The notes under the pieces are model-generated. The model made no database searches. It was not told where the DNA came from and saw nothing but the letters and a program-made list of their open reading frames with translations. Shown in pieces: positions 8,288 through 64,000 of a DNA stretch of 64,000 bases. The stretch covers positions 5,084,001-5,148,000 of the forward strand of contig OY986950.1 of NCBI GenBank assembly GCA_963920595.1, in the 5' to 3' direction. The position numbers were made by a program, and so were the translations under genes. The DNA comes from Eimeria praecox (Eukaryota). The stretch's first letter is position 1; every line of letters starts with the position of its first letter.

Positions 8288-11200
8288 TAGTAGAGCTTTC
8301 AACGGACAACAGGCTGTCTCCTCGTAGGTCGATGGAAATGGTGGCATGGCCAGCGCAAAGTTCTCTTCAGTGTCCTGTCGAACAGTAGCAATTGCAAGTG
8401 TTCTTGGCACGACGCGTGGCCCCTGGATGTGGTACTTCAATCATTTCATAGGATTTGGCTGGGGCGTCTGCGTGCCTTTGCATACTTTACATGGTCAGTT
8501 TGATGTGGCACAGACTCAAGTGGTGCACCAGCCTACAGTGATGTATATCTCCACGTAGCCACTAATAGCAGCTTGTGCGTTGTCATTGATGAGGAAGCCA
8601 AAGCCGACGAGCAGGCTTCAGAGGCGCATAGCCACTGTGGAGGGCCAGCTTCTCTTACAATTATTGTGATTGCCACTAGCTCGCAAATTGGAATCATGCA
8701 CCAGGATATCCAAGTAGTTCTACGTTTCGGGCCACCTTTAAAAAAAACCACGTTGATCGTCCTTTGGCCGGCTGTCGAGAAATCTGTTTGATTAGCTGAT
8801 GGGCGCCGGTTATCCTCTATAGCTATCCTTTGCCGTGTGTAGTGGCAGGAAGCGGTTGCACGTGGTGCTTATATCCGGATAACCCGTTTGATAATTACCG
8901 AAAGCAGGCTATGTGTCGCCTTGATAGCCCAATAGGCCACGTAGCCTGGGGACTATGACAGGTGGCTCGGGCACGATTTAGCTCGTTTCTAGCTAGCTGA
9001 GTAATTACAAACCTTCTGAGCCGGGTGGTTGAATTATCGGCACATCGTATGCTTTCTTTTTCAATAAGGCTGTGCGTTTCTATCCCCGGCAATACGTGTA
9101 TGCCTTTAAATGTAAGGGCGGCCCAGGAAAGCGGCGAAAATCATCTACGCCGTTGCTGGCTAACTTTGATGCTGTGCGTCTGGTTGCTTGAAGCGACAAT
9201 GAGCGACTTTAGTATATATAAACTGGCGTGCATGCTTGGTGAGTTGAGCTGAGGCATCTGGAGGACCCAAGCAGGTGGTTTGCTTAACGTGGAACTGAAC
9301 ATCTCGCCATTTGCCTGATTATGCTTGAGGTGCCGATGATCAACTGCGTCAAGCCCATCAAAGAGTGCTAACGTTAACTGCTTCCTGGCCCGTGTCGTAT
9401 TCCAGTGTTGTTCTGCATGCTTGTGCCTCCACCTAAACTAAAGACTGTGGGTCGTTAGCCAAGTTGAACTGAGTTTGATGCTCGTGTGCCTTAAGCCTGA
9501 GCCTACCCTATATTTTCTGCTGCATTCAAATGCTGAAGACGTTTACCGTTTTCCTCCTTCATCTGTATAGCGCGAACTTGCACTATTTCACTAACGCACT
9601 GGCAGCCATTGCGTAAACGAGCGAGTATTCTTGCTGTCGATTTGATTTCGCCATATTGCACGGAGCGCTGACTTCTAGGGGTGCTCCACCAGTGGTTACA
9701 AATGTCAAATTCGCCCGGTTACAACCAGCATGTTGTGGCTCGTTCACGCTTTCCTCCAGTAATGTTCACTGGGCCCAGCAGGCCTTGTGCTTTAAGGTGG
9801 CGTTTTTCCCTGCATCTTTAGATGGATGCTTGCGAATTCTTCATGAATTTGGAAACGGTTCCGTTGCTCGTGAAGCGCGGCGCCAACTACCAGCGTCCGA
9901 ACAACCAGGGAGACGCCCCAGTGGGATACTGGCCCTGCGCGTTATTTTGAGCGGCGTCGTACTCATAATTGTGACTCGTTCAGTGGCAGTTGCATTCTGG
10001 TGAGCCCTGTTCGCTCTGTAATAACTTCGTTAACTCAGGAAGTACGCAACTGCCTTGTTCCTATAACACAAGTCAAACATGGCTAGCCTTGTTGAACACA
10101 CACTGAGGTTGTCGTCTAACGATCGCGTGGTGCTTGTCATGCTCGAGCACTGCCCGTTCGAGATGCAGACAGCGGATTTATCGCTTGTTGGTGCTGCTAC
10201 TGTTTCCGGCTCTGCCAGCCTGATTTGAAGACAAGCGAAAGTACGTGGCCCTCCATCTTTGTATGGTAGCTTGCCTTCCCTGAGAGCGTGATTGCTCAGT
10301 TGTGCACTGAGGTAAGAATGTTTTTGCCACCAGCTTGGCTAAACGATTTTATCGAAGCTGCATTTTCAACAAGCGAAACCGGCGCCGGATATGTTGGGCG
10401 GGTGCTGGTTGACAGCCAGTTAAACTGGAACGCCTTTATCCATTGCAGGAATTGTGTCTGGAGTAGAGGAGCCATACACCCAGTTTAGCTTCCCTTTGCG
10501 TCGCATTTGCATTTATGCGCAATACGGAAAAATTGAAGCTGCATGCGCACGATGGCGTTGCACTTGTTGAACGCCGCTGGTAAGGCCCTCGAATGAAAAT
10601 GGCTACCAGGTTCCCCCTAAGCCAGTTACTGGCTTGGACATGATGGGGCTCCGCACCTGGACACTCACGCGGCTGCAGATTGTTCTGCCCACAACTTTGC
10701 ATTTCGATTTTGCTGTGTTACTAAGATAGAGAGCAAATTCTATGCTATTTCGCAATATAGCGAGTACGACAAGCTTCAACCTGTGCAGGAATGAACTTGC
10801 ATTCAGGCTCAGTCTAGCGATACTGACCCAATAAGAGCTGCTTCACCTTTTTAAGGCCATATTCATGGCTCCCTTTACCCCATCAAAGGCACTGCAGATT
10901 GCAGTAAATTCAAGATTTACTCTATAAGTGCGGAGATCGTCCTGAAACTCAGGGAAGGCTGCCTGTATCTTGAAAGAGCCAGCCTAGTAGGTCTTGGTAC
11001 CTAAAGCATGGCCTTTGGTTAACCTGGGCTTACTGGCAGATGCAAAACCCACTCAAGGGTGCTTCTCTCTAGAGGAGAAAGCCCCAGGGAGCCTTGTTCT
11101 CTGCTACTCGAGTTGCTTGGCTGGTGCTGTACGGAGAAACAGAGGCAAGCTTGCCTAAGCCTGATTCTTTGCTTCCGTTAGCATGCACAGGCTGAGGCCA

Positions 11201-14200
11201 TGGAGTGCTTGGTGAGAACGGTATTTTGGCTGTTGGCTGGGGGGGGGGGCTGCAAATGTGAAGCGAGCTGCTTAACTGCCTTCCGTTGCATATCTAAGAG
11301 GGTATCTTAGGCTAAGCGCGGCGGTGACAACAAGTAAAATGGTGCGAGCCCGTTTGCCTATTACCCAAGAAACGGGCAATCTAGGAGGTACGTGTAGCTC
11401 AAATCTCGAGGCAGACCTACAGCTACGACAGAAAATGCAAGTCCAGGAGCCACTTCTGCTCCTGTTCGAGCTTCACTGTTGCGACATTCCTTACGTGCGC
11501 GTAACGCTCACAGCTTAGCTGCAGGCTGCGGCGCCTGTGTTCCATCGGAGAGTCGTAACAATACCCAGTTTCACGACGTAAGCGTGGGATGCTCTCATTG
11601 ATGAAATCCCGACACTGGCCATCACTGCATAGTCTTATGAAATGACGTCCACAAGCTTCTACAGGCACACCAGAATAGGTAACTGTCTTAACATGGAGCG
11701 AACCTCCACAAGCTGCCTGTCAGGAATGTGAGGTTGTGCCTCTTTTCTCCTTTCCATATTAGCGGTTGTTTCATACTAATTTCGAACTAAGCATCCTCTT
11801 AGCTTGAATGAGGCACCTGCCCCGATGGGTCCATTTATTATATTGTACGGGAAAAGCATGCATGTGAAAAATGCGCTTGCGTTTTGAAGCAGACCGGGAA
11901 CAACCAACCCCACGGCGTGTGGACTACCCCAGGCTGTGCGCATCCAGCTCGTTTTTCTTGTCAGGTGAAGCTAGTGCTGGTGTTCCCAGAAACGCTGGCG
12001 AATGCCACGGGGCTCAGATAACCACCAGCGAAACAATGTTGCGTTAAGTTGGCATGCTGCTTAAAATTAGGCTGGAGCAAGTGGCACTTTCTCGCGTTTG
12101 TCTTGTAGGAATATAAAGTGTGCTCTGTAATAGTTTTAGGTAATCCGATATACCTAAAGTGTTGTTGTTAGTTGTTTCCACAAACACTGCAAACTACCTT
12201 GAGTGTGGGCTACCACGGACACTGCACTCTTGGGGGCACACATTGAACATACTGGAAACATGGCTAGTCAACATGAGGTGGCACAAAAGGGGCAGTCTTG
12301 AAGGTTGCATGTGCTACCAGAGGCTGATTAGTACTTACGTGCTGCTAACGCCTCCACACTTTGCTAGGGTTGAAGCGGTGCGCGCAGTTGCGAATCCCTT
12401 AATGCCAGTGGCCTGTCTAGCAGGCATTAGGTGGTTTTAGATAAGTGCCCTTTTGCGGTTACTTCCATGTTGTGGCTCGGACTGTGCTTCTGGAATAGCT
12501 CTAAAGAAACGTTTCGCGGACCTTGTGTGCTGCCCTACACTCCAACAAAAGAACCCACAGGCCATCCAAGGCTTACTTGGTGTACTAGTGATATGCCGTG
12601 ATGAGCAGCTTGTGAGCTATATTCATTTTGGCTGTGAATGACTCACGGTAGCTAAGCGCAAACGCTGAATGTAAGTGCGGATATACGCTTCTGCATATTC
12701 ACGACAAAGCAGACCCCATGTCTGCGCTGGGCAGCGTCAACCCATCATATGCGGTCCTCGCGTGCTACTTGTTGTTTTGTTCAGGTATATGGGTAAGCAC
12801 ATAATGTAATGCACCCTAACTGGTGAGAAGGGCAGGGGTGCACGAGGAGATGAGAGATGCAAGGCAAACAGTCTGATGGCGGTGCACTCCCTGTGGTGTC
12901 GTAGCACGTTTCGGAAGGTACCATCTTGTGCGAATGCCTTCCCTCCCATGCACCACATTTCCCGAACCGATGCTCCCAACCAAAGGGAACGTGCCATATT
13001 GCTTTTCATCAGCTAGTGCGTTGCTGCCGGATGATGCGCCGACATGTATAAGCAGTGGGAGGCCGTAAGCCTCAGGCTGCAGAGTCCAGCTTATTTGTGC
13101 ATAGTGCAAAAGTAGAGCTCTTTTTCTTAAGGAGTCGTCTAAGAATTCACGGATTGCGTTAAAGCAGATGCTGTCGTACTGGCAGCGTGGCGCTGACGTT
13201 TTTAGGGACTATGTGTCCTAGCAGATGATCCGGCGAGCAACTGCTTGCTTTTGGGGCGGACCCGTGACACTGCTTCGATCCATCCAGAGGCCCCTGATGT
13301 AAATCTATGCAGCAAATTGCACCAAGGTCCGTATATTATACTAGCATATGTGCTGGCCGCACGCGCCCTCTTCCCTCTGGAAATATATGGCTTGTGAAAA
13401 GCTGTGAATTCTAGACGGTGAGTTGGCAATCAGCATGGACTGGCTGGGTTCGTATCACACTGTAACCCTATGCTTTGCAGAATGCAGCTTATGGTTTTGG
13501 CGTCCTTGTCCCTAATGCGAAGTGCGAGCTCCTTTACCACAGTTATTGCAGTTCTATCAGGGCGTCACCAAGCTCATTCGGGTATTCGTAGGCTCCCGAT
13601 TTTAAGGTAGCGTCAAGTCGATTGACGCAGTGTATGTGCGCTTTAACAGCCATTAGCTGTGTATTTTGGTATGGACAAGAGCATGTGTTGCGCCAGAGCA
13701 ACAAATGGCAGTATGATGGGGCGTTGTCTGTGTACGTTCAAAGGTATCTGAATTGGAAAGACAGGCCAGTCCGGCTGCAGCCATCGTAGGCGAAAGGCCA
13801 GTGACACAAGCCGTTGACCTATTTGGCCCTGTAATGAAAAGTGGTGCAGCAAGCTGCCTTTTACTGCTCCAGCTCAGAAAAGCACAGGAATTACTCCGAT
13901 GGCTTGGAAGTCGCAATTCTCGGAGGCTCAAGCTGCCTGCTTATGGATATGAAAAATTGAGGCTGCTGAGTCGGAGGAAAGGCAACGTCTACAGACTGAC
14001 TGAGTGCTGAACGTTATCAGGCATTCATAAAGGCGTTTGGTGGACAGGAAGTAGGCGTAGGAAAGAGTCGGTTATGAAGTGTTAGAAACAGTCAAGAAAT
14101 ATTGCAGTTGGAGTGCCTCATGCGATTTGCAAGCTGGAAGTGTGAGTTCATTTCCGGCGGGAGTGCTTGGTTGGCACTTGATGCTGGAGACATCTGGTGC

Positions 14201-17200
14201 CAAAGTCAGAGCAACAGGCAAAGAAGAGCAATCCATCCGGAAACGGGAAAATAGCAGTTCACTATGATATCGAGCATAACTCTTGGCGTTTCCGCAGCAG
14301 CGTTGCAGACCGCCATGTAGGGTCCCTGCAACTATTAAGAAAGCGCTTTTTGCCTGTGAACTGATCGAAGAGGCGTACCGTAGGCGCGATCCTGCCTGCT
14401 GGTGCCTGTGGAAGAACTCGTCGACGCACCTGTTGTCTATCTGCAGATGCACCTACAGTGAAGTCTTGTGCTCGCCACCAGCGGCACAGGCTGCTGTCCT
14501 TCAGATGCAGATTCTGTCGACGGGTAGCTGCCGCTGAACTATGTGCATTACAAAATGTTGCAGCACATACCCCTCTGGCGGCACTGTTGTGTAAACGGTT
14601 GCCAGGTTGTTTTCGAATCACCCAAGCAGCTTGCTGAAGTGTGGAGAAACACTAGTGATGCTTGTTCAGACTGTGCAATTTCGCAGCAGCTTCCTGGCGT
14701 GTGTGATGAGTGGGGAGCTCAATGGGTCGCTAAGCGTCCGCGCTACAGAACTCGCTGAGAAGTGCACGTCGTGCATATCTCAACGCCGTAGCGCCTAAAT
14801 GGGCAATTTATGGCGTGGCGTCTGGATTAGCATCTGTTCAAAATCCCCGTTGCACAGGCAGTGAGCAGAAGATTTTGCATTCCGTGGCTATATCTGCGGA
14901 TGTGCAACCATTCATCCAGTTTGCAGCTTAGGGCGTATAAAAGCTCTCACAGTTGTGGCTACGATCCCCGACCTCTCATATCTTTACGCTGCATTTCTAC
15001 TGTGGCGCTGCGATCCCCATAAAAGTCAACTGGCTGCTGAGGTCCTCGGTGCAGCCCATCAGCGTGGTAGAGTGCAGTTAGGAAGGGCTTTATTGCTTCT
15101 TAGGACGTCCTGATGCATCTACCCGAAATAGGAAAGTAGGTGTCCACCTCCCGCGCTTCTAACGCGCAATATCATCTCCCGGGGCATCTTTCGTCAGGAA
15201 GTATGCGCTGAATGACATACGGCACGCCAGAGCTTGGGGAACGCCGTCTTCTCCCGGCGTTCAGTGAAATTTGTGTCTGCTGGTTGCAGTGTCAACTATG
15301 GCGCAGCGGGACCAAATTGGCGATACCGCCCGTGCCACAGGAATGATAAGTTGCTGGATGCTATTCAGCATTGCGCCTCGAGCGACTGGCTTTTCTTGAA
15401 GATTGGGCGTTCTTCTATAGAAAGGAAACGAAGGTTCAGATTTGTCCGAGGGCTGCAACTACTTTACTTTCCAATTCGTTTTCGAGGAGTGTAGCATTAG
15501 TATGGATTTTATATCTGGTTTTGATGAGTGTTGGTGTAAAAAGTCGAAAACGTTGTCTAGGATTTGATAATGGAACTTCAGCCGTCGCTCTGCAAGATGG
15601 TGTAGCAAAGCCCTTGCATTATCCTGCCTACGAGACGATGCACAAGAACCTGTGCCTTTTCATGTTTTGAAAAACCAAGCTGGCATGCTTTTGCGGGTTG
15701 CTACTGCCACTGGGATCTCGAGGGATACTGATGGGCTGCTGCTATTAAGAGCGCAAAGGAGGGTCTAGGGCTCGTTGCCATTGCAGCGGTGGATGCATAA
15801 CATGGCCACTTGCACCACTTGACTGTATCGCAAGAAGTGCAGTGCTAATCTGTTTTTTGCTGTATCCCTGTATTATGCACCGGCTGACCTGAGCATGTAG
15901 TTTGCAGGTACGGTGGTACAGCGAGTAAGCCTCTGGTCAAGCGGGTGCTAGCCCTAACTACGTAAAAAGCTTACATGGCGTTTCATTCCCTGCCCAGCAG
16001 CAGTACTTCCTTTGATCGCAGCACTCAAGTTTCATGACGTGACGCAATGTTGCACAGGCAGTAGGCGAACTGTAGCACAGGATATGGAGCAATTCCAGGA
16101 GTACCAGGAGCCGGGCTACTTGAATGCTAAAAAGGCGGTCCACGGCGCACCACATGGCTAGCGTGGAACTTTGTCGCGTAACTGGCAGCAGCGTGAGATA
16201 AGAGCGGCTCAGGGGGAAATAGGCTAGTTGCGCCATCTTGGCTGTTTGTTACGTGCTACAGGAATCATTAGACCGCCTCCTGACGACAGCTTGCACTTTC
16301 CCGTCTTTTATTTACCCCTATGGTCAATGCGTATCGCATGGGACCTTGGATGCCAAAGGACGCCCAAGCACCTGGCCGGAACTCGCGTACAGGATAACAG
16401 ACGGGCCCAGTGTAAGGTAATGCAGCAGCCGCCCTTTCACCTTGGAAGTGGTCGCGGGGATGTATGCGTGCGCAACATGCACGTTTCCACAATTTGCTGA
16501 CTGGCGCATCGGACCCTGGGGTGCGGTAACAGCAGTGACGCCTCGATTGCAGGTCAGGGCAAGGGTTCGCATTAACTGGTGGCGATGAAGTACGGCATGA
16601 CCAAATGGGGTCTTCGTTTTGTACGTGAGCTCTGCTTTGCGGTGCACACAGTCCTGGGGATGCAGCAAGTAAGGTCAAGCAAAGGAGTAGCTTTATTTGT
16701 GGCATCCAGCTCTACGTTTTCTCGCTATGTAATGTGTGTATGGCATGCGCTTTGATGAATGATTATTCCCCACAGCGGCAGAATGCCTGGTATCGTGACC
16801 GACCCCGTTCAGCATGCCATTTGTACAGGAAGTATGGTGCAACTGCTAAATGCTATAGAATAGTGCGAAAGATTAAAAGCAACGTGCTAGGTTGTGCGCT
16901 ATTTAGGGTGCCACCGTATGATAGAGCATTTGAGTCTACTGGTAAGCTTGTTGCGGCAACGCAAATAAGACCTTGTCCAAACTGAGGCAGCTGAGACATA
17001 TGAAACTCAATTCTTTGACAGCCAGATATGGCCGCGCAGGCTCTATGTAGTTGGAGTTTGGCATGCTGTTGCATGTGGGCACTTTTAATGGTAGCTTGAG
17101 TGAGAATAGCAGATTTTGCCTGTACGTGCTAGGCTAGGGCAGGACTGGCAGCACTAGGAATAAATGACCCGCTGCAGCAGCATTAATTGCTGCATTTCTT

Positions 17201-20200
17201 GTTGCTCACGCCTAAGGGTGATCTGGGGTGCAGCTATCACACGCTCACGGAGGTGCAGAAAGTGCGCTCATGGTCAAGGGGCGAGCCGGTTCTCAATATT
17301 GCCTAGAGCCTGATCCCCGCTTTCCGAAATTGGTGTTGCCGCGCTGCCGCGTACACATTTTTAGAACAAGCATGTAGGCAACGGAACTTGTTAAATATCA
17401 TCTCTTGCACAGGCCGTAGGTTTGCGAAGCTGTCTGCTATGGAATGGAGCGTTGCGCAGACATAATATAGATCACTGGCAACGAGGAACTGTTAACGGTG
17501 GCGTCTTGTTGGCTTGCAAGGCGGCGCATCTGGGTTACCTTTTAGGGACTGAAAACTTTGGCTCACATCATAACAGAATGATTGCCCGAGTGGCCTAGTT
17601 GCCGAATAGAAGGGGCTCGTTGTGATGTGCTTCATGACCAATATTCCAAAGGTCGGCGACGCTGTTTCCATGTGGGAGTGAGTAGTGTAAAAACCTGGTG
17701 GAGGAGAGGGATGCGCATGAGGCGACGCTGCACGGCAATGAAGCAGCCAGTCTTGCGGTAACTTTTCATATGCCTTCCTTTAACGGTGCATTGTGCCGTT
17801 TGCCGGCTCCCGTTACCTTCATTGTGTGAAACCATTGAATCTGGGTGCTGACAGTGTCCTATCCAGTCAATTAAATACAATTTCTCTGCTGGAAGGTAAT
17901 TTAGGCGAAACTATACTTGCCGCTGGCACCCACGTAGCCAGCTGGAAGCATTACATCGCAACAGATGATCCATACAGGGTCGCGTCTCACGAACCCATGT
18001 TCTGTCAACAAAGCAAGTGCGTTTTCTGCAAAGCGCGTTCTCTTCGCAATAGGGTAAGCTGGGGCCCCTCGATTCTGTTCCCACAGTGCACTAAAGGAAA
18101 TCTGTGCAATTTCTCCATGGATGCCCGATGGCGAAACAAAGAAACATGCGTAGCAACGAGCGAGAAGTAGAGGTAGCCTGCATGCTCTTCTATACAGTTA
18201 GTAGGTGTAACGTTGGCTGGATGCTAAGCCCAGAGGTATAAAGCGCCTGTGACAATTTCACTCATGCGGGAGTGAGAAGAGGTAGAGTGAGAAACTGTGA
18301 CGGCGGATTCAGTTGACGGCTAAACTCGCTCTGGACTAGTGGCCGGCCAAACCAGGAAAGGCGGTTATCACATTCCCGCAGCTGGTTTGGGGTGTGCTTG
18401 CTCGAATATGCATTGCTTGTCAAAGATTCTGTTTTCTGGGAAAGCTGCGTTTTCAGTATCAGCATGGTGGCATCCCTCTTTTAGCACGCGACAAAGCATT
18501 GGGTCTTCTCTAACGTAGCAGATGGATCCCAAACAACCACAACCACTACAGTACACCGGGTATGATAGCGACGTGCACGCTTGCTCACGAGAAGGCGACG
18601 CAGGCTGTTCAGGAAAGTGCAGTTTTTCTTCTACCGCCCTTATCATTTGCGCTCATTGAAGCGTGGGACACTGTCTTGTTTGCAAACTCCTTAGCATTCA
18701 CGATGCTACGAATCATGAAGAGCTTATTTTATTGGCAACTGTTTCCCCCAAATTAAGTCCTGCAGTCGTGATTCCCCAGCGTCTCATGGAAAAAAGATGG
18801 CTGCTTTGAAGGCTGTATTATTATGAGGCGAAAAAACCTTGTCAGCACTTTCGCTGTGGTTTCTAGCATTACAACTACTCAGCTATGGCTTTTTGAAACG
18901 GCTGCGTCCCATGTGCGGGATATGTAGGACAATCATGCAGTGCATTCCGTTTGCAGACGCCTCGAACTGCTTGCGCAACTATGAGTAAACGGGGGGCCAC
19001 AAGGCATCTTTCCAAACTGCAGGCTGTTCGTTTTGCCTCATGGGTAATCGTGCACTAGGTAACCCTTGTGCATGGCAGGAGTTGCCTTAACCTTTTAGCC
19101 AGCAGCCCGATCCAGTCAATCTACTGAAATGGGCAGAAATCATAGTAGGCTTCCAGCGAACGTGTGCTGGGATCCTTATAGACGTTTCAACGATTTGCGT
19201 CGGCCAAGCTGGGATCTATTGCTTTCTGGCAGTGCAGTCTACATACGTCATAACCCCGCGCGAAAAGCGTACTTTGCCGAAAAATGGCGGCCTGGCTACA
19301 AAGTAATGAGCAAACGCAACTCTTGGCAAGAAGAAAAATGCATACAGGCAGTACGCGTGAACTTGAATTTTGTGCAGTATTGTATTTGCACGAACTTGGG
19401 TTTATTGCAAGTATGGGTTTGAAAGATATCTTTAGCGGTCGAAGTTGTTTGTTTGGCTCTATTTTCATTTTCACCCAGGCCCAGTGCACAAACGTTCAGC
19501 ACAGTGACAGCGAGAGCTTTTTGCCTACCAGACAGTACGGATGCGCTTGCGAGGGAGGTAGAAACAGCTTTTGGGTGTGACACCAAAGCCTTATGGTTCG
19601 TTGACGTCCTGCAAAAATGTGGGAGTGCAGTGAATAGCGTGTAGTCGAACACCTAGCAGCGCTGCTATACCTATACCGGGCTTTTATTCGTATTGTATGC
19701 TGTTAGTGTGCCCTTCGATTGGCAAACGGAGGTGCGGGATCCGACGCTTTGTAAGCAATTGAGCGGGAAGCGTTCGTCGACGGTGTACAGGACATGTTGC
19801 ATCAGGTTGTAGGCTTCATTCCTGAATTAATGTGGTTAAAAACTAAGACTGCAAAATGGTCCTTATTCAAACCCAGAATCGATCACATTCGAGAGCACTC
19901 CGTGCCTGAACCCTAGCGTATAGAGCTTGCATCATAAATGCAGTTAATCTGCCTGCTGAAGCTGCGTTCTTGTAGCTCGCCTTGAGCACAAGCAACAGAA
20001 GCTTTGATTACTCCCCCAATGCCGTCGTCCATCTTCGCAGCCTAGCATGCTGTGCAACAGGAAGTACGCTAAGCGTGCGGACTCTGAGCACAAAGAAGGC
20101 GTCGAAGGTAGCTCCAAAATCAGAAACCGTGTTGTGGGGGTGCATTTATGGGGTACAACCTTGCGTATGCCTACATGAAAACGCGGGATGGAGAGTTGCG

Positions 20201-23200
20201 GCTACATTTCCCACAAGCGCCTTATTCTTAGATTGGTAGTTCACGGCTGTGCCCGCCCTTCATCACGAAGATAGCATAAGGCCCACATGGGTGTGGGTGA
20301 TGAGATGATCAATGATATATTGAGGCAATAAGAAAGACTTTTGCACTAGGCGGTAAGCTGCTTTCCCATGTGACTTGCATACTCAGTCCCTTGAACGCAG
20401 CCAATTGTGCGTCAGAAGTCGGTAACTGACTGTTCGGTTTGAGATCTTCGCGCACAAATGGACTAGTATACTTTCTCTTCGCTCTATACTTCTGGCCCGT
20501 TCCAGCCCACGCTCTTGTTGGGATATCACCCATTTGACTATATTTGGATTTTTTATTGAGAGTAAAAGGTTCTTGAATTTGCGTTTGATGCTGAAGGCAT
20601 ATATTCCGGTACCATGTAACTTCGATGCTTCGTGACTCCTCAGGCTGTACGGTTCACTTCTAAAGTGCATACATCATAAGCTCCGCTTGCAGGCATGCAG
20701 AACCATCGTTAAAACACATGAGCATTCCAGCAACGTTCCGCGCATCGTCTGCTCATTCATCATGCACAAAGGCGGATGGAATATAAGCACAGCAGATATC
20801 GTGGGTTTACCGTGGAACGCTGGTGAACAAGTACAACAAAGTGACAACTGCATTTGCAGTGGACTCCAAAAATACCAGGCAGTACGCTAGCTTCGTAGCG
20901 TGCTCATATGGGGAGTCCCGCGTTAACTGGCAATTACATGGGAGATTTCCCGCAGCCATTTGAAAGGCTTTGAGTGTCTCGGTTTAGTGGTCCGATTACC
21001 GATTTCTTCTGTTCTTGTGCAGATGCTTTGCGCTGGTACAATGCCAGTGAATTATGAATCAGGCAGTAAGCGTGTTTGCACAACAATCGCTAGCGCCGTT
21101 AGGATTTGTGAGCGCTTGAGGCAGGCTACGTTTCGTATGTGTGGCCTGCCTAAGATCGGCTGGAGCATATGGGAACCCTTAATGCCGTGGTGCTAGGCTG
21201 GTAACGCATCAGGCTGTGTGTTTGTACTCCATATGGCACGTGCCAGCACTGCGTCTGCTACCGGCGTGAACAAAGGGGACGCTTCGCAAATATTTTTCAT
21301 TTGTTTTACACTGCGTGCACTACCCCCAAAACAGCCGTCCTACAAAAGGAGTAATTAGCTAATATGGATAAGGCTAGTGTTGGCTACTACCGGGAATATG
21401 GCCCATGGCTGGGTGCCTCGTAAGTAGGAAAAGAGCACATATCGTGTCTCAAAATTGGTCCCATGCATCAGGCAGTATGATTGCTCTCGATCCGATTTCC
21501 ACCCATAAATTGTGGCCTTAACCGCGTGCCATGCGCCAAGCACAGCTAGTTGCGCTCCATCATACTTTCCCGCTCAGTGCTGGGTAAGCAGTAAAACGAT
21601 TTCACAATCACCGATAGGCACCTACAGGCTTGTTGGTATGAACGTGCCTTTGCGAAAGTGGGTTGAGTCTGCTTCGCGCTGATGTGTACGATGAACAAGA
21701 AGCCAGCGTGCTTGAAGGGAATATGAGAATCCTGCCCATCAGGCTGTACGTTGGAAAGAGCTTAGTGCTGTTGATTTCATTTGAATAGTTCGGGGATCCC
21801 ACTGTCCCAGGCTGGGTTAACGTGATTGCGCAGACAAATTTGGCAGTGGCCATGCATTGGAGAAGGGCCTTCTGCACTTCCTAGACGAGCCATCCGTCAA
21901 AACCGCAATGGAGCAACCCAACGATAAGGCATATGCAGTCTTCTAGATGGGTGATCATTGATTAGAGAGTGCGTTTAGTCTGAATTCAAGCGATGGAATT
22001 TTTCGTGCTCGCTTCAACCAGACCGTTTGTTTGGGTGCTCGTGTGCCACGGAGGTAATGCAGATGTGCACGAAGCTTGCCTACTTGAAGCTTGTGCGCAT
22101 TTGATTCTCCAGGCAGTGCGTTCAGCGCGTTTTCTGGAAGCTAAACGGATGATTGTATTCGACAGCTAAAATGATGTATATTCCCTGCTTGCTTACTTCT
22201 CAGTGTTGGAATTTCTTGTTCATGCCAGACGTAATGTCGAATTCTCAGCTAGGTATCGCTGACGCGGATCATACTCAAGCCAGTACTCACGGTTGCAAAA
22301 TAGGTGACGTCTTTAATTTATACCTCTTGCCTAAGCGTTGAACACGGATGGAAGCCTGGAGACGTTGTAGAGACCAAGCATCGGTGGCGGCTCTCCAAAA
22401 GTGTACTTTGTCAGGAAGTACGCAACATATTTGATGTGTTAAAGCGCCGCTTCGGAACATGTGTACTCTCAAAGATAATTCTAAAACCAAGCGTTGCTGT
22501 CCTTGCTAGCAGCCGTGACGTTTTGGAAATTATCTGTATCACGCACCGTAGGCGTTCGTCCTCTTCTTTGATGGCTTCCTCAGGCTGCTGGACAGCTTTT
22601 CGGGGGCGTTGTGTATGGTACCCAATTTAGCCTTGATGGGTAAGGAGCAGAAGTGAGCACCAAAGAATAAGCTCACCTTGAATCAGGAAGTACGCTTGCT
22701 CTCGAGGCTGCTTGAACGAGAACGAGCTTGGAGAAGTGAATCTTCAAGAGCGGATGCGTGAGACGGTTTCCCAACTTGAGCTAAATGGGCCGAACCAGGT
22801 TTTGCAGCGCGAAGGAATCGCTGGTTCAGAACTGAGCGCAATCTACTTGCGTGTTGATCGCTTACCTGTGCATTCATCCTTTAGCAAATCACGCGGATGG
22901 GGACAGGAGAGCCGTGATAGGCAGATGGCAGGCAAGTGAATTGTGCACCTTTCGACGCTTTGTGAATCAGGCAGTAAGCCCGACACTGTTTCCGGCACGG
23001 AGCTAACGAAATGCTGAGCAGGTTCAGTTATAGATAATCATCACATGCTGTACTGCAGATGCGGCTTTTCTACCAAATCACATTGCGCAACTGGGGAAGT
23101 GTAGCGGGCGGGTCAAAACAGGCCACTCACTTAAGCGGTCCAGAAATGGCGTGCATCAGGCTGTAAGCTTTCGAGCCTGTAAACGTCGACAAAGGGAGCC

Positions 23201-26200
23201 GCGTGTTGAGGGTGCAAAACAAGCTCAAAAAGTATTGGAGCGGGGCAAAAACGGCTGAATGCCTTCTAGGGAAGACAGCAAAAAAGGCGTGCACTGATTC
23301 TGTAAATAAGAAGTATCTGGGGATTTAGAACTGCTCGTCTACGGCTGATCATGCTTCCTCTACGGTAAGACTGATGTGATTTAAAAGCGTGTGGCAACCA
23401 AGCGTGTACCTTGTCAGTGATAAAATGCCATACATTAGAAAGTAAGCCCGTTATCTGTGCTTAGCACACATGCAGTGTATTGAAAGAAGCATGGAGTTCG
23501 ACGGATAGCCAGGAGGCATTTGACGGTGTTAGGCTGTGCTTTGCACTCAAGATAGCGACCGGTAGAGTGCCACGTGAAGATTAGGAGTAACCTTTACCAC
23601 CACCGCCATACACTGTCCTCATGCAGCTAGATTCAAAATGTGGGCAACAACAGGCGTTTAAAACGATGCTGAATGCCAGATAATAAGAAATGTTGCGATA
23701 GGAACCATCCATGTTTCAGAGAGTAAGCCTTAGCGTCCAGCAGCTTCCCCAATGCACCAAGGATATCAGGGGTATCTGGAGACTTGAAAGCACTCCACAA
23801 AACACAGTTTGGCAACGCATCATCCTCCATCATTGTTCTTTTACCAAAAATTTATCGCGCTTCGCAGGCATGCCGATTCAGCAGCCAACTGCAGACTAAT
23901 TGAATGAAATGCAGGTACCCGGCGTCTGAATACATTTTCAGTGTGGTGAGTAGGGCTTGTGGGTTTTATCAGGCTTATTCGTGCAAAATGTAGTATGCAT
24001 CTCACTACTCATTCAAAAGGCAGTAAGCTTGTTCTCTGTTTGTTATGTACATGCTGTACTTTAGTGAATGCCAGGAGGAAAACACTTCCTAATGGATGGT
24101 ATGAGTTGGTCATGCATGATGGAACGGTGCTAGAGTTATTGTAGAGTACGTCTTTTGCCGAAATTGCTTATGCGTTTGCAACTGCACTGCGACTGCTCCT
24201 TGTTGCTATGCTCCAGCCAGTGCGCTATATTTGCAAACAACCTGCTGATCCAGGCTAGTGGCATGCTCCGCGCATTTTTGTAGAAGCGGGGCACTCTTAC
24301 ATTGGGAAGGATGACACGAAGGACTTGCGTTTGTGACCAGCTGGCGAATATTCTTACAGTCATGCACTGGACACTTGTTATCCTAGGTACTGCAGACTGT
24401 GGCTTAACTGCTTTGAACGTGAGCCTCCCGAATCGTCTCCTGGGGGTTTATGATGGAGCAGATAATTTAGAATGCTCGGGTGTGGCGCGCATAGGTGAAC
24501 AAAAGCACGTTGCGGCGTGTTTGATGAACCTGCAAGGCTTTGCGCATGCTTGCCGCTCTTCGTTGCCGCACCAGAAGATGTTTTAGAAGACAAGAGTGCA
24601 GCCTAGGCAGGTCTGAAAAGGTGGGGCTTGACGATAGAGGAAATTTCACCACGCGATTGCCATGCATCACGGCGTGGGCCTAATACCAACAATGTAAGCA
24701 GTGACTGTCACGCATTCAAGGGACCATGGTGCATTCGGCGGGCACGCAGAAACGATCGTATGCGCGCGCCCCCGGCAGCGTGAATATAACGGGACAGGAA
24801 GTGAGCGCGACCTTCACAGTAGAGCACTAGAGCAGAGCGTGTTGGCTTGCTGAGCGCCCAATGAGGCTATTGACAATCTGCCGGTCAGACGCACCAGAAA
24901 ACTGCTTTTGCCATTATTGGTTTTTTTTTAATTTAGGACTTTCCTTGTGAATACGTCTGGTGTTCAAATCCTCATGGCGCCTAGGTTGGAAATAGGAGCG
25001 GCCCACAGTATACTGCTTAGTGCATGAAGAGCCTGCTTGCACAGATCCAAAATTGGAGTGCCAGAGGAAAGCTGTCCCTCCTGGAATTTACGTGGCATGC
25101 GTTGCCAGGCTTGAGGAGGCAGAGGAGGAACGAAACGAACGCTGCTTCTTAAGAGGTATGCGTGCATTTACCAGCACGTGGAGCGCAAATGAATTTGAAA
25201 ACATGGTACGAGATTGCCAAAGAAATGCCCCTGCTTTTGCTGCATGCTTGGGCGCAAGCTTGGTTTATGACGAGTGCTAGGCCACGTTCGGATGATTTCC
25301 ACGTTGCTTCTAACGGCTAGCATTGGCATTCGGCGGCTGCCATGCATCAGGGTGTCATGCTTCGAGCTACGGGAACAAAGAACAGCTCGACTGCTGCTAA
25401 AGAATTGGGTTTATTTCGATAGATTTGGGAGTCCTTAGGGCTGAACTAGTAACTTTGCGACGTGTACCAGAGTCTAAAAAAACTGCCTAACCAACATAAA
25501 AATACCAATCATGAAGCTAATTTTCTGCAACTCTTGGCTTCTCCGCCTGAGTCGTGCCAGGAGGATGTAGGAAAAGAACAAGCTGCCCGAACGCACTGTG
25601 CCAGAACAGAAATGTCATGCAACGCGCACTGCGATCTGTCTCTACATCGCTACTACAAGATGCACATTTTGCTGGCTTGCGGCAATTTAGAATTTCGTTT
25701 TATTCTTACGAGCGCTGCTGGTTTTGGGGCACGCATGGGCGTTTGAGGGCTTAGGTGGTACCCTCATTATTGGGCCTACAACTATAGAGTACGGTTAAAG
25801 GCCAGACTTGGCATTGTAACCTTTCAACGCAGAACACGATGGGCTGCGCAAAACAACTGAGAGGAAGGTGTGCGCTTGGTGGATAGAGGTCCCTCAACCT
25901 CGTTGGCGCTCCATTTGCTAGTTTTGCTCTCCAGGGAAAATTGTGGCATGCTGACACGAAGATTTATCTCCGCTTCACTGAGCTGATTTGGACTAAAATT
26001 CAACATGGAGGCAATGTGCCATCACGGCTGCATCGCGTGGCAGGCGGTACGCTTGAACCGCAGTAAACGCAAGCGTTTTCTTACCATTTTACGCTTTGAA
26101 GAGTGGCACATTCATGTGAAGAGCTAGATTTTAGGGTTGGTCTGCCTGCTCAAGTGAACCAAGTGAACTTGTGACGGCACGCAGAGAAACTATTGTTGTG

Positions 26201-29200
26201 TTTTGTTAGCTACAGTTCGTTCTGCCCCTTGGGGGTTGCAACTGCGTAAGTCTTTTGGTTGGCGCCTTGAGCAGCTCTTTTTGGTCCTAGAACATTAGCA
26301 AAAAAGCCGTACTTGAAAAGCTGTTGTAGCTCACGGGTGTTATGATGAACTGTCTCCCCCGGTGGAACCAAACTGTAGCTTGCTTAGAGAAGGCCCTTTT
26401 AATCTCAAGCACCAGCATAAGTTAGTTCGCCCTCACAACCATGTTTTCTATTTTCGACTGAAGTTGATGTGGAAACAATCGTACACTGTGTGGGGCTCCA
26501 CTTCGCCAGGCGGTGAGATCGGCACCTGAATACAATTGATATTTCAACAAAAGGCTCACCATCCATCCTGGAAGAAGCGAACACAGTCTTGTGTTCGTAG
26601 GATTGAACACGTGCCGAAGTGTGGCATGCGGGCGCGAGACGTTGGACACAAGTCAGCATCTCCTGTCATCGGGCATTCTGTCGGATGAGATGGTATAGCG
26701 GGCTATCCAAGCCCCCCTTTCCATGCTCTTGTCCTTGCGCATTCTAGAAGATGATTGAGCTACGGGCTTGCAATAAGGAGTCATCGAAGTTTCATGTGCA
26801 AGTTCTGACTAAAGCTGAATACAAATGAGGGCACGATGGACTCACAGCATAGCAAATCCCTTGACACCAAAGGAATGCACTTATGCAACGGCCAACTATT
26901 GGAGCTCAGCGAGTCTAAAACATTCTTGGGAGGGCCGGAAAAAGCCTCGAGAAACGTACTGCCTAGCGGAAGACCATTTTACGCCTCTTGTGGAAAGGCT
27001 GCGCCTACTCCCTCAAGATGCGTACCTCTGGGGGGTGAAGAGGTTAGTGAAAAATCATTAGCGCTAAGCATTGCGGCGCAACGTTACCCGGTTGTGTGTT
27101 GCATCTTTGGGGCTGATGGGCCCGCAGTATGTCCAGCACAGATGAGCCAATGAAGGCTTTTCGGGCAGCGAGCATGCACTTGCGCAGGTAGAGCATAGAG
27201 AACGTGGAGGAGAACCGAACTTTGCTGTAGCGGTATCACACATACTTCGCGTGCCTGTGATATGGTGACGCAATACCTTTGTGGTTGCCACTTATAATGC
27301 CTACTGTGGATCTGCAATAGAACGAGGAAGCAGGCTGCGCAGAAGCAGCCTCGCGCGCAGGAAACTATGGCATGAAAGGCCAGCATAAAAGGTCAACTTA
27401 GCATTGACTTGCAAGTGTGGAAGGCTTTAGCGAAGAGCGCAGGCATTGTGTACGGTCTGACGGTGGTGACCGTGGTGGTGACCGCATGCGATGTTAAGAG
27501 GTGGAGTGCCGTAATAGTTTAAAGCCTTGATTTCTACAGCTAGAGGTTGTATCGTCTGCAACGGCCCTTTCACTAGCGCGTGAGAGCTGGCGTCTGCATA
27601 AATCGAATTTGGCGTGGCCCAGCCCATAAATGCGGCCGCGGGTGTAATAAGGAAGAAGGTTGAACGTGGGTATTCAGGCGGTAAGCACATATCGAATCAA
27701 TCACACAAAGCCTAGTGCTTCAAGGAGTTGCCGAGACCAAATAGCCTTATCTAAGGAGAATTGGCTGCGTTGGATTGTGATCTCTGGGAGTCCCAAGCGG
27801 CGGACAGAGCGGTGGGCAGGTTCAGGAGCGGCGTTCCCAGGCGGTTGTTGACGCTCCTTACTTGGGGGTGCATTTTTTCTTGCTTTGATGAATGCCGTTC
27901 GCGCGTCGTCAACGCAACGACGGATTTTCACTGAGTGCACGCTGGCCTACTGAAGCCTCACAATCCAGGCAGTAGGCTTGAGCCCAAATTAGCGTGGATC
28001 GAAAGGGATACGGCAGCAAAATAGAAAGCGCACTTTCCCACTTAACGACTGGTAAAGCTGAAACAGGTTCACATTCGCAAGCCTTTGCAGTGTATGGGGC
28101 AGCTTCCCACTAAAGACTCTAGGTACGTTGTTGTCGGAGTGATGATTAGTTCCGCCACAAGCGAAATGGGCAAGGCCACTGATTCGACACCGGAAGTGCA
28201 TGGCTGGCGGGTGCAAACCAGGCAACATTATGATGAGGCCCGTGAATAACATGAAAAAGGCTGTACGCGCTTTCTATTCATTGTGTTCAGGCACACTTCT
28301 ATTGGGGACAATAAGTACGTGGAGGAAATTCCAAGATTTAAACGCTAGTGTTGCCGCAATGCAACGACAAGTTGTAGCCCACTGCACATGCAGGGCCTTC
28401 CGAGTCCGTCGATTTTTAACTGTCGTTGGCTATCACCTTGCCTGTGTCTTGACCAGTGAAGTCGAGAGGGCGGAACTATAAAATATGATGTGAGGGATCC
28501 AATTCGGGATAGAGCGGTGCGCCAGAGAGTATGATTGGTCCCTAAGGGCAGTTTGGTAGCTTCAATGCAGTTTAGATATCTAGCGTCAATGCAGTTAAGA
28601 TATCCCATGATCTTTTGCATTGCCTTAGCCTGCAGAGAATACAGGAACCATGCCAAAGATTTGCATGCATAAAGATGTTGTTGTGCCGCTGCGCCCTTTT
28701 GCCCAGGTGAAACCTGTGTAAAAGGTAGAGGCATTGTCCTTAGCAGATCCGCATGGGCGCATTCTAAGCAACCAAATATCATGCTTCAGGAAGTACGAGC
28801 AACTCCTTGTGTCTAAACTCCTGAATGACACCCTGCTTTGAGGAGTAGAGCTGCAGTCTGGGCGTATGAGAGTGACGTGCTCTAGGCGGTAAGTTTTGAA
28901 AGTAAACTACAACGTGAAGCGTTTATCAGGCCCTCGTTGCAGTTGGAGCAAATCCTTAGCCAACCGCTCCTATAGGGGCTCACAAAGTAGGGTTCTTTGA
29001 GTGTAAAACCGGTAGAATGTTGGGATATATAGTGTGCTTTTATTGAACCAGGAACGTTTCGACGGAGGGTGCTTGCCTGAACCTACTGTTCGTGTGCAGA
29101 GGACTGTTCATTGCTTGCAAGGATGGCAAGCCTGTACGGAGTTCACATGTTGGGTTGTGCTATGCATCAGCGAGTGCGCTTGGTTTCCACGCCAGAATGA

Positions 29201-32200
29201 GCAGAGTCCGATGCCGAAGGTCTTGTGCACTATCATGTGTTTCGTGCTGCCCAGGAGGAAGCTTAGACTTGGATCACACTGTGACGCAACGTTGGCATGA
29301 GGCATAACGGCGTTGTTCCACCTTTTAGGCAGGGCATCTTTTGGCCTTATTCCTTCTGGAATATAATCTGTTTCTCACATGCTATCGCTTGCATATTCGA
29401 AAGCATCAGCCACGCTGAACCAGAAAGTAAGCAGAAGAAAGGAAAGGGCGCATACGGGGGAAACGCTTCTTCACATATCCATGAATCGACTGGCGCTGCC
29501 ATATTTCGTTGTCTGCTGGAGTCGCATGCATCAGGCAGTGCGTTTGGATTTAATTCTTTGCGCACGAACAGTTTCTATGGGGCAAAACGGGCAACGGCAT
29601 GCATTTCTGTCATTATGCTGCGACTTTGCACTGTTTCTGAAAAAAAATCTGAATTGAGATCCCTATACAGCTTTTAGCATAGCCGTGCTTTGAACCGTTT
29701 GCAAAAGACTAAACGCGATGGCTATTGGGGAGCATAGACTTCAGTGAATTGTCATACTCAAGGATGTAGATTGCTGTGCCAAGAGGTCTCAAAATCACTG
29801 CTTATGTGTCTCTTCACCTTTTTCAAGAATACACAGCCGCATACGAAGCGTCCTTGAATTGATTTGTGCACGCTGATGAGGGTGCTGGGCGTATGCTTTG
29901 CTAAGGTTCATGATTTGCAAGGGCTATTGTAGTGGCTGTTGCATCTACAGGTTTCATTCAACGCGCCTCACGGGGGCTCCTGCGCCTCGTGAAGCTCATT
30001 TCCGTATATGCGGCAAACATGAATTTTCCTTCTCACCATTTTGTTCTTTCAAGCATTACAGCTTTCCATGGTGCCGTTGATGGCTATCTAGCACCGTTTA
30101 CGGCATGCATAGGCGTCTCATGAGTAGCACGTGCGCCTGGACTGCGCGAGATGGCGTGTTGGATATTCATGAACTATGCTAGAACTGCATTGTTTTCAAC
30201 AGGCTGTGCGTGTGTTCCCTAGGCGTATGACAGCCGTTCAGTAGTAGGATTACGCTAATTGTACTAGAAGCGGCGAACCAGTGTTGGGATGCCTTAATCG
30301 CTCAAACGGCCGCGCCCTTGGCGGATCCTCCGGCAACTACTGGTACTGTTTATAGTCGGAATCGCATGGGCCATGACAACTACACTGAATGCCTGTCTGC
30401 GCGTAGCTTTTTGCGGACGTCTGGTGCACAGTTTATGGAACAGAGACAACCGCATTTACCAGGAAGTACGGGTGGCCTTTGGCTTGCGCATATAGCTGAG
30501 GAATAGGGATAAGAGTGTGCAGACTGATTCTGAGCACGTAGAAGTACAGGAACGCCATGTTTATGGCAGGCGGTAAGCCGGAAACCCAGCCAGCTCATGT
30601 TTATAGCGCTGCATATAGTCCAGAGCAGTGAACCTTTTAGTGGGCGCATAATACTGTCAGGGAACAAAGAGCACGGAGATAGGCTTAGCCGCCTGCCGAC
30701 TCACTACCTTCCTATCAGTCAGCGTCACCTTTTGTTCCGCTGAAGAGCAAATAAGTTTCGTTTCTACCAGCTAAGCTGCACTCGCGAGAGTGGCATACGA
30801 CCGGTGGGCTTGGTGGACCAGGCAGTACGGTTGATGCATAGTGCACGCCTTTGGGAGCAGTACAGTATGCAGGCAAAACTTCGGTGCCGTTCTGTCGGTG
30901 TGCCGAGGTGCCACAGTGCACCGAGCATGAGCAACGGAGGATGGAAATTAGTTAAGGAGCTTTAGGGTCACAATACTTGGGAGCTTTGCTGGCTATCTTG
31001 GGTGTGTGGTGCGTCTCATGAAGCTGGGTTCCGTCATGCGCAAAAATAATGGGAAGGCATTATACTACGTAGGCGGTGAGCTTGTTTCGAGGACAGCTTT
31101 GCTTTCAGACACCTTAAACATCTAGCCCCTTGCAGCTCAGCAGTGGTATCAATTCGCGTCAGGCATGCTGCAGGAAGCGGTATCACCCAGTATAAGAAGA
31201 AGTAGCGCTGCGCCATACACGCATGCCATTCACTTCGGTCCGTCATGGACACCAGCACCAGTTGTTCGCTCTCACGTTCAGTGTATGCTGCGCGAATTCA
31301 GGTTACACTTCCTGAGCGGCAGTGATCTGTGCCAGGATGAGATCGTCGTGCATCAGCAAGTACGCATGAACTCGGCAACACATGCAAGCGTGAACTCGTA
31401 AGTGAAGTAAGGCAACCGAAGACGAGCTGGTGATAGTGAACTTTGGCTTGTGGCGATTGCTTGCGGCTGCATGCGTTAGACAGTACGCTGTATCTCAAGC
31501 CCACCCCAACAATTTGTAGCATGTGTCTCCCGTGTGTTTCAGTAGAACATTCCCTTTGAACCATTGCTCTTGACGATTGGCAGCCAGTGCGCCAGGTGTC
31601 TGAATCGCCTGCGTTAGCATAGCACGGGTAGGGGAAGGCGTATACTTTCAATTCCACTACTGGGATCGCAGAGGTGTGCTTATCGCCAGTACAAAATGAC
31701 TCTGCGTTCTGGGCAACTTGTGGAACTTCCCTAGCATTAAACGTATGCTTGTATTGCTGTCTAACAAATCCTAGCAGGGACGTTCGCGGTGATGGGGGTG
31801 TATCAAGCAGTGTGGCGCTGAGACTGGTAACGTGTGTTTGGGCACTGCGTGGTTGTGGCTTATTAGATAGTATGCTCGATATCTAAAAGATAGATGTGAG
31901 CAATGTTAGGAAAGCATTCATCGACGGATAGCACCAGTCCAGGACAGCAATAAGAAAGTGACGGCCTAGCATTATCCACACCTATAATTCTTAGTGCTTT
32001 GTGTTTGGTTTCTTTGGTGGACGTAAAGTGCGGGTGACCATTGGCTGATCAGTAAGACCCTGACGATGACTTTAGTAGCGGTAAAAAGGTGGATTGGACC
32101 AGCGAGTAAGCAACAGCTGGGCCGCCTACAGGCCATGCCGTGTTGGTAGTTGGCACAGCATAGAGCAGGCATCCACCTCTGTAGGCGCATATGCTGCACG

Positions 32201-63294: not shown

Positions 63295-64000
63295 GTACGC
63301 TGAGTGTTGTTGGCCGCCACAGCAGTAAAAGGACTGGCGTTATAAGACGCCGTGCTTCAGGCACACGTGAAAGTGCTGAATGAAGGAGGTTGAAGCTGGT
63401 GGTTGAGGGCGCCTGTACCTGGGAGGGCATGCGCAGACGCGTGTCAAACGCACGGCTCTGGCAGCCTTCATCGAAGCTGGAGTCCTCGAGGCGTGTGCGG
63501 TTGTTAACATGGCAGTGGCAAAAGTATATCCTACAGTGGATGGCCGGTAGTAGAGCTGTTTTGCCTGGGTCTGGCTACGGGCGATGTTCGATATGGCCTT
63601 TTGTATCAGCTGAATGGATGCTTGGTACGTTATTAATTGGTTGTAAGCATGACGCCATGCTGGTGTTGCAGGTGCGGTTTGTCTACCTACGCTGGTGCAT
63701 AAGCGTGGAATGATCTGCGCGTGCTAACGCGCTTTGTGCCGAACAACAATGCATAATTGCACCGCGTTGCGCTCTGGGAAGCGCATATCCGATAGGTGCG
63801 TAAAGCGTTTTGAATAGCAGATGGCGAACGCAAGGAAACGATCAACAGTGAAGGTGATTTCTCTGCGGCGTGTTGAATGCACGGGATACTGTAGTGGGGC
63901 GCGGAAGGGCGAAACCGATATATTGGAGAGAGCAGGCCCCCTTGTGGGACGGAGGGTGTGGAGCGTGAACGAGCGAACTGACGATATTTTCACACGCTGC

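Follow-up and report, generated by a model that had tools for sequence, protein, structure and literature searches.

A predicted array of single-codon exons in a seemingly gene-free stretch of Eimeria praecox DNA

A stretch of 64,000 nucleotides (nt) from Eimeria praecox (contig OY986950.1, positions 5,084,001 to 5,148,000, forward strand), which is called the window in the following and in which positions are counted from the first letter, is seemingly free of genes. A sequence-only reading had proposed 19 such exons between 19348 and 24022; all 19 triplets were identified there with AG before and GT behind them, and the intron lengths of 147-367 nt are correct for that parse. The analysis presented here favours, with a confidence somewhat above even, the view that these and many further triplets belong to one or two unannotated protein-coding genes, as spliceosomal exons of a single codon each, which would be joined with mostly ordered inclusion. 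This would be an extreme gene layout, which ordinary annotation would overlook.

The units were identified by a length test. Between 10.0 and 38.6 kb, the pattern YAG-N(k)-GT[AG][ACT]G was matched 74 times on the plus strand at k = 3, and any other length (k from 0 to 40) gave 2 to 14 matches; on the minus strand, 4 matches were obtained with k = 3. By weight matrices, 59 units of 3 nt were counted on the plus strand and 1 on the minus strand of 19.0-38.6 kb. Circularity was avoided by cross-training, for which a first dense block of units (block A) was scored with a model from 27.5-38.6 kb and the latter region, containing a second dense block (block B), with a model from block A, both at a cut-off of at least 10 bits. 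With the model trained only on 27.5-38.6 kb, 20 of the 42 AG-NNN-GT candidates in 19.3-24.3 kb reached the cut-off, where 0.3 were expected, and 34 sites in 27.5-38.6 kb reached it with the block A model. The chance of the observed counts is P=6e-20 for block A and P=3e-35 for block B. This identifies at least 54 cross-validated 3-nt units about 250 nt apart, 20 in 19.5-24.2 kb and 34 in 27.7-38.5 kb. For the whole window, 104 sites of at least 10 bits were counted against about 4 expected, a number to which the training block and repeat copies that are not independent contribute. The gaps between units have a median of 261 nt and are shorter than 90 nt in 2 of 63 cases (16 expected). The splice strength of the units ranges from about 10 to 24 bits, with mean acceptor scores of 8.1 bits in block A and 7.1 bits in block B. 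The sites first proposed are likewise strong, 18 of the 19 having at least 10 bits with the 27.5-38.6 kb model; the exception, 19348 with 5.4 bits, has a strong donor and a weak acceptor and could form the tail of a longer exon. The array reaches well past 24022, the last position of the run first described; a Pro-codon unit at 24217 lies just beyond, and the array runs on to 38.5 kb and further.

A purely accidental origin of this pattern, by chance matches, assembly artefact or a dispersed DNA motif that is not spliced, has already been largely refuted and is rated as very improbable. Nothing speaks for it beyond the DNA-only nature of the evidence. It is contradicted by the two chance probabilities given above, by the bias to one strand, by the AG exclusion zone described below, and by DNA of an independent study, which is identical bar one letter. 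For the latter, contigs of three sequencing runs, X1, X2 and X3, were compared; X2 and X3 are from one sample of an independent study, and one run may be the source of the window. The region of 18.5-38.5 kb, introns included, is covered in contigs of all three runs with a single letter of difference. Because the contigs of the independent study match this region, the array is not an assembly artefact. The differing letter, at 26795, is T in the window and C in a contig of all three runs; it is probably an assembly error of the window and lies outside the candidate exons.

The consensus of the units, found on the plus strand only, consists of a donor GT(A/G)(C/A)GC and an acceptor near TGCAYCAG. 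In a non-circular check of the acceptors, 71 sites were picked by AG-NNN-GT[AG]NG alone and compared to 349 control sites. Another AG was present at positions -12 to -3 in 4 of the 71 sites, with a background of 0.536 (P=4e-18). T was found at -8 in 48 sites (28% in controls), A at -5 in 43 (21% in controls) and a pyrimidine at -3 in 63 (47% in controls). These features were not used in the selection, and therefore the units carry splice signals. In the converse test, with sites taken by an acceptor pattern alone, 20 of 26 have a GT at a distance of exactly 3 nt downstream, compared to 1 of 8 on the minus strand. Features of U2-type spliceosomal structure were identified on the DNA level in the form of extended GT donors and AG acceptors on one strand, with an AG-free zone before the acceptor.

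Recursive splice sites are zero-length AG/GT junctions. Unlike these, the zero-length class is not enriched here (4 against 4 by pattern, 3 against 2 by weight matrices), which argues against a non-coding role of the units as recursive-splice-like stepping-stones in a long intron or a non-coding RNA, the 3 nt serving as a spacer. In favour of such a role, a conventional coding exon was not found in the window, and the biases of the whole array, to G at the first and to A at the third position, could stem from splicing. It leaves unexplained that positions 1 and 2 are coupled, that helix-formers are in excess and that stops are absent from frame 0, all presented in the next paragraph, and is considered quite improbable.

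The phase of the triplets was tested directly, because frame +1 likewise gives a plausible helix. When 64 sites were joined in order, no stop was found in frame 0, 2 were found in frame +1 and 5 in frame +2; the 59 adjacent junctions of the 71-site set gave 1 stop in +1 and 5 in +2. Bases 1 and 2 are coupled inside the triplets (p=0.0015), and across the junctions no coupling was detected (p=0.11-0.96). Codons for the helix-formers Ala, Leu, Arg, Met, Lys, Gln and Glu make up 58 of the 71 triplets, compared to 43.1 in position-permuted triplets, and none of 20000 permutations reached 58. Helix breakers and stops account for 5 of the 71 (15.8 expected, p=1e-4). In block A, pairs of opposite charge at i+3/i+4 occur 4 times against 1.6 expected (p=0.036). 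It is therefore supported that the triplets behave as phase-0 codons. An avoidance of NAG codons (2 against 13) was rejected as a separate signal, being indistinguishable from a general bias for A at position 3 (Fisher p=0.70).

Coding selection in phase 0 had been proposed earlier from eight consecutive Ala sites varying only at the wobble base. The coding part of this proposal is borne out by the tests on stops, coupling and helix-formers, and the wobble argument is weak. Ala occupies 30 of the 64 sites, and for this reason the longest Ala run, of 7, is not special (p=0.11 for the whole array, p=0.03 for block A alone). Moreover, an Arg-codon unit at 21966 lies inside the supposed intron of 367 nt, which becomes two introns of 220 and 144 nt, and the run reads seven Ala, Arg, Ala. 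The 57-nt mRNA predicted by the sequence-only reading omits this codon and would at best be a skip form, so that an exact search for the 57-mer could fail though the gene is real.

If the units are exons, the product would be an alpha-helical rod rich in Ala, Glu, Arg, Lys and Gln, its codons being joined one after another, and from its composition a helical spacer or stalk is the most likely role of the protein. Exon definition cannot bridge an exon of only 3 nt, so that each intron of about 250 nt would have to be recognised over its full length, the introns being taken out one by one, and most codons would be included, in order. Since every exon is in phase 0, a skip would delete one residue without a frameshift, and the layout is tolerable for this reason; tuning of the length by exon skipping is possible by construction, every exon being symmetric. 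Duplication is as harmless to the frame as skipping, so that growth of the array is explicable. Such growth would have come about by copying of intron-plus-codon units and of larger blocks; the intron interiors would afterwards have diverged, with splice sites and helix-compatible codons being retained.

A number of observations weigh against this assignment as spliced coding exons. All of the support is on the DNA level. The acceptor pattern of the converse test had been drafted after the consensus was known. A CTRAY-like branch-point motif occurs in 2 of 55 intron ends compared to about 9 mid-intron, where the consensus of the host itself may differ, and a polypyrimidine tract is not visible at the intron ends. 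At the last base of the exon, where G is usual, 45 of the 71 sites have A. The excess of charge pairs is missing in block B (1 against 1.5, p=0.77). In the flanks and in 24.3-27.5 kb the units are sparser, and their acceptors have about 3 bits compared to 7-8, as if decaying. A possible first exon ending at 19350 and a possible last exon starting at 24898 are speculative candidates. Among 210 of the 310 open reading frames (ORFs) of at least 70 amino acids (aa), 91 on the plus and 119 on the minus strand, Pfam gave seven weak matches, all below the cut-off, and a credible protein relative was not found for two candidate frames. Finally, among the matches listed for other contigs, which are described below, there are four short loose ends of X3 located away from exons, and the common splice consensus itself favours partial matches landing on exons.

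Weak units at low density, as found in the flanks and between 24.2 and 27.6 kb, would also be expected of a once-functional microexon gene which is in decay and has ceased to be spliced. Solitary strong donors spaced roughly as expected, for example at 29891, and the recent tandem duplications listed in Table 1 fit such a decay. In blocks A and B, however, the signals are near-perfect and a stop triplet is absent, though the intron interiors have no mutual similarity; this needs recent selection, and decay is judged improbable. Even when combined, the non-coding, decayed and artefactual readings are unlikely. The sparse interval between the two blocks consists either of long introns or of decayed units, or marks the border of two genes.

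Table 1. Candidate exons and repeat features of the window
Feature	Position	Strand	Remarks
Tandem unit of 3991 nt	1..8294	+	about two copies, few 3-nt sites; 4 vs mean 0.4 in one unit
Upstream zone	8300..19300	+	sparser units, weaker acceptors, codon preferences as in the array (Ala, Glu, Leu, Arg, Gln)
Possible conventional first exon	19099..19350	+	phase-0 frame open to donor 19351, two in-frame ATGs; speculative
Block A	19348..24219	+	3-nt candidate exons at 19348, 19532, 19806, 20061, 20350, 20644, 20879, 21063, 21213, 21472, 21743, 21966, 22113, 22415, 22687, 22971, 23160, 23439, 23720, 24020, 24217
Seven Ala-codon units in a row	20350..21745	+	three synonymous codons
Arg-codon unit	21966..21968	+	acceptor 7.0 and donor 7.7, together 14.7 bits under cross-validation; 0.015 per kb in the null at >=14 bits
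Pro-codon unit	24217..24219	+	18.6 bits
Sparse interval	24220..27576	+	clear units 24798, 26044, 26510; 3 vs 0.2 expected; mean acceptor 3.3 bits
Possible last exon of block A	24898..24936	+	acceptor 9.4 bits, then 12-residue mostly hydrophobic frame and stop; speculative, T-rich DNA easily yields such tails
Block B	27678..38472	+	3-nt candidate exons at 27678, 27969, 28260, 28526, 28790, 28886, 29171, 29424, 29535, 30203, 30463, 30822, 31357, 31480, 31867, 32103, 32338, 32581, 32806, 33085, 33297, 33531, 33774, 34344, 34662, 34870, 35104, 35694, 36492, 36783, 37242, 37380, 37805, 38470
Block B, weaker units		+	27577, 30570, 31073, 34105, 35394, 35890, 37551
Duplicated unit pair, exons 35890 and 37551	35879..37593	+	Gln in one, Glu in the other; 54 nt, 81%, E 3e-7; 95-column local alignment of intron-end/codon/intron-start piece
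Tandem duplications	38974..64000	+	units of 2.0-4.0 kb

The introns of the array are mutually unrelated in their interiors, as 4 of 1485 intron pairs lie above the 99.9th percentile of shuffles. Tandem Repeats Finder (TRF) identified only two short arrays in 8.3-39.1 kb, none of them inside 19348..24022. The statement of the sequence-only reading that the introns have no obvious long repeats was thereby confirmed. The best intron pair is formed by two adjacent introns in 34665-35103 with a similar stretch of 56 columns (score 42, null maximum 35), and this similarity is a remnant of a local duplication. The mutual dissimilarity of the introns points to a design that has long been kept by selection and did not arise merely by recent repeat expansion. 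The introns of block A are 144-299 nt long. Two further candidates were excluded from this block, namely a CTT at 22090 (7.4 bits), where the next acceptor follows after only 20 nt, and a CCA at 22280 (8.6 bits). For the upstream zone, 12 sites were counted against a mean of 1.3 for other lengths, and 11 against 0.7 by a second count.

Downstream of block B, 46900-64000 contains at least 7 tandem units of 2.0-3.5 kb. In 46.9-64 kb, 21 sites were found against a mean of 2.3, the copies not being independent. Four AG-NNN-GT sites in these repeats have AG and GT kept in nearly all covering copies while their triplets vary, an example that is illustrative only, the sites having been picked by their conserved GT. 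One of the triplets is hydrophobic (Phe, Leu or Ile, with a fixed middle base), one encodes mostly Ser by two synonymous codons, and the other two vary between Gly, Thr and Arg and between Arg, Glu and Ala. A probable exon of 12 nt is likewise kept in these repeats. No frame with a clear synonymous bias was identified in the 2.4-kb repeat units, which therefore contain no long coding exon.

At the ends of the putative gene, a signal-peptide-like stretch was not seen by eye in the candidate first exon. For the frame upstream of the first donor, a credible protein relative was not found; a 55-aa repeat protein was rejected as its relative, as only weak stretches were summed in the match. Two long exons proposed by a parse made in the present analysis, 19059-19350 and 29708-29890, were rejected on account of stops inside or a shifted frame. 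At 25175-25213, a candidate exon in an A-rich context ends exactly on ATG, with a donor at 25206; it could, speculatively, be the first exon for block B. Relatives of the longest ORF (39293-40180, minus strand) were not found, and Rfam gave 0 matches in the window. The ORFs of at least 70 aa outside the Pfam set lie mostly in further repeat copies.

Genes with codon-sized exons are known from other organisms. The accessible text on the nank genes of truffles (Tuber) describes NACHT-ankyrin genes with tens of codon-sized exons per gene, for which alternative splicing was shown (PMC4986451, PMC13449251). The tens of codon-sized exons predicted here (the 20 and 34 cross-validated sites) resemble what that text reports. 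In contrast, no Pfam match to NACHT or ankyrin was found in the 210 of 310 ORFs tested, a search which covers the window only, and the codons form a low-complexity, helix-forming tract. For the Tuber nank genes, splicing variants were shown in the accessible text, whereas the at least 54 strong units over 19 kb described here are predicted from DNA. The micro-exon genes (MEGs) of Schistosoma have a coding region made up mostly of short symmetric exons of 6-36 bp (PMC5825161; see also PMC4015677), and in the accessible parts of both papers they form paralogous families, some of which encode helices and nearly all of which are secreted or membrane-anchored. Like these MEGs as described there, the predicted coding region consists mostly of short symmetric exons, all strong units being of 3 nt and in phase 0. 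Unlike the 6-36 bp reported there, the enrichment is found only at 3 nt. MEG products are mostly secreted or anchored according to the same text; here, the candidate first exon is devoid of a signal-like stretch, and the candidate hydrophobic tail is speculative.

Both systems provide published precedents for another reading, in which the exons are real and coding, and the layout serves combinatorial skipping that yields a protein population of varying helix length and register, as in schistosome MEGs or truffle nank genes; this corresponds to the tuning suggested by the sequence-only reading. The frame is kept by any subset of the units, since each is symmetric; their splice strength covers the wide range given above; and 10 of 12 triplet columns are variable among the duplicated copies. 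This variability is not clearly over background, as 35% of the columns are invariant overall. The narrow set of helix-forming residues is unlike a variable binding surface, blocks A and B consist mostly of strong sites, and the ordered charge pairs hinted at in block A suit fixed inclusion. Skipping as the purpose of the layout is possible, and is given clearly less credence than the mostly ordered inclusion favoured above.

On a smaller scale, microexons of 1-15 nt have been validated in plants and are often missed by annotation (accessible text of PMC8831610), and a trio of exons of 3, 18 and 22 bp was described for human RPS24 (accessible text of PMC11162997). In line with what these sources describe, exons of 1-3 nt can be spliced; there, one to three of them per gene stand between ordinary exons, in contrast to the dozens in succession predicted here. 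In Eimeria, the homopolymeric amino acid repeats (HAARs) share the Ala-rich tracts with the array, but are contiguous CAG repeats, whereas the Ala codons here are split by introns; a triple CAG was found once in 8.3-39 kb, and a CAG tandem array was not found there. In the literature covered, which was mostly main text free of subscription, no array was identified that encodes a helical tract and has introns diverged from one another, and none in apicomplexans. What sets the present array apart is the divergence of its introns, together with its size and with the absence of a domain from the ORFs of the window that were tested; as predicted, it works like the known genes with codon-sized exons but departs from them in exon size or in domain.

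Further arrays may be present elsewhere in the genome. Other contigs with a depth near that of the locus (482 and 498 compared to about 600 in X2, 47 compared to 53 in X1) match, among the matches listed, only in short pieces, two of them located at 21454-21485 and 35880-35905, one starting at 22104, and two ending at 27983 and 29548. The five listed X1/X2 pieces all end at most 20 bases from predicted exons (21472, 22113, 27969, 29535 and 35890), and two pairs keep their order on one contig. The chance that a random piece of 26-32 nt holds a site is 0.07-0.09. This suggested paralogous arrays in other parts of the genome. In addition, X2 contigs at 2-3x depth, 80-85% alike (about 82% overall), are collinear with 19283-26475, with exons 20879 and 21213 in segments that are unaligned with them. 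These low-depth contigs would derive either from a related second organism or from a diverged copy which shares the array region.

A wider proposal is put forward tentatively and is itself rather doubtful. The whole 64-kb 'gene desert' would be one or a few giant genes made up almost throughout of exons of one codon (around 100 units) and with paralogous arrays elsewhere, and a family of such genes, whose helical products are varied residue by residue via skipping, may lie hidden in the gene-poor subtelomeric regions of Eimeria and Toxoplasma. The window resembles the gene-poor subtelomeres ('gene deserts') of Eimeria tenella and Toxoplasma gondii, as described in the accessible text of PMC9131526, in that a gene is not recognisable, the GC skew is steadily positive and the repeats are of low uniqueness.

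If splicing of the array follows the prediction, only around 1% of the DNA that is transcribed would be coding, with dozens of consecutive 3-nt exons joined in order, and the locus would be a natural extreme test of intron definition and of splicing order. Such exons escape gene finders and read aligners, and 'gene deserts' may conceal unrecognised protein families. The AG-NNN-GT length test is simple and can be applied to any genome.

Some features of the base composition and repeats were also recorded. The coccidian palindrome TGCATGCA was not enriched in the window (2 against 2.8), and a telomere-like heptamer was not found there. In each of the 32 bins, 2 kb in size, the GC skew is positive, and it increases toward the 3' end to a value of about 0.2, on the same strand as the splice signals. 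In two of the downstream repeat copies, at 46991-47039 and 50498-50546, a perfect inverted repeat with arms of 24 nt and a loop of 1 nt was identified.

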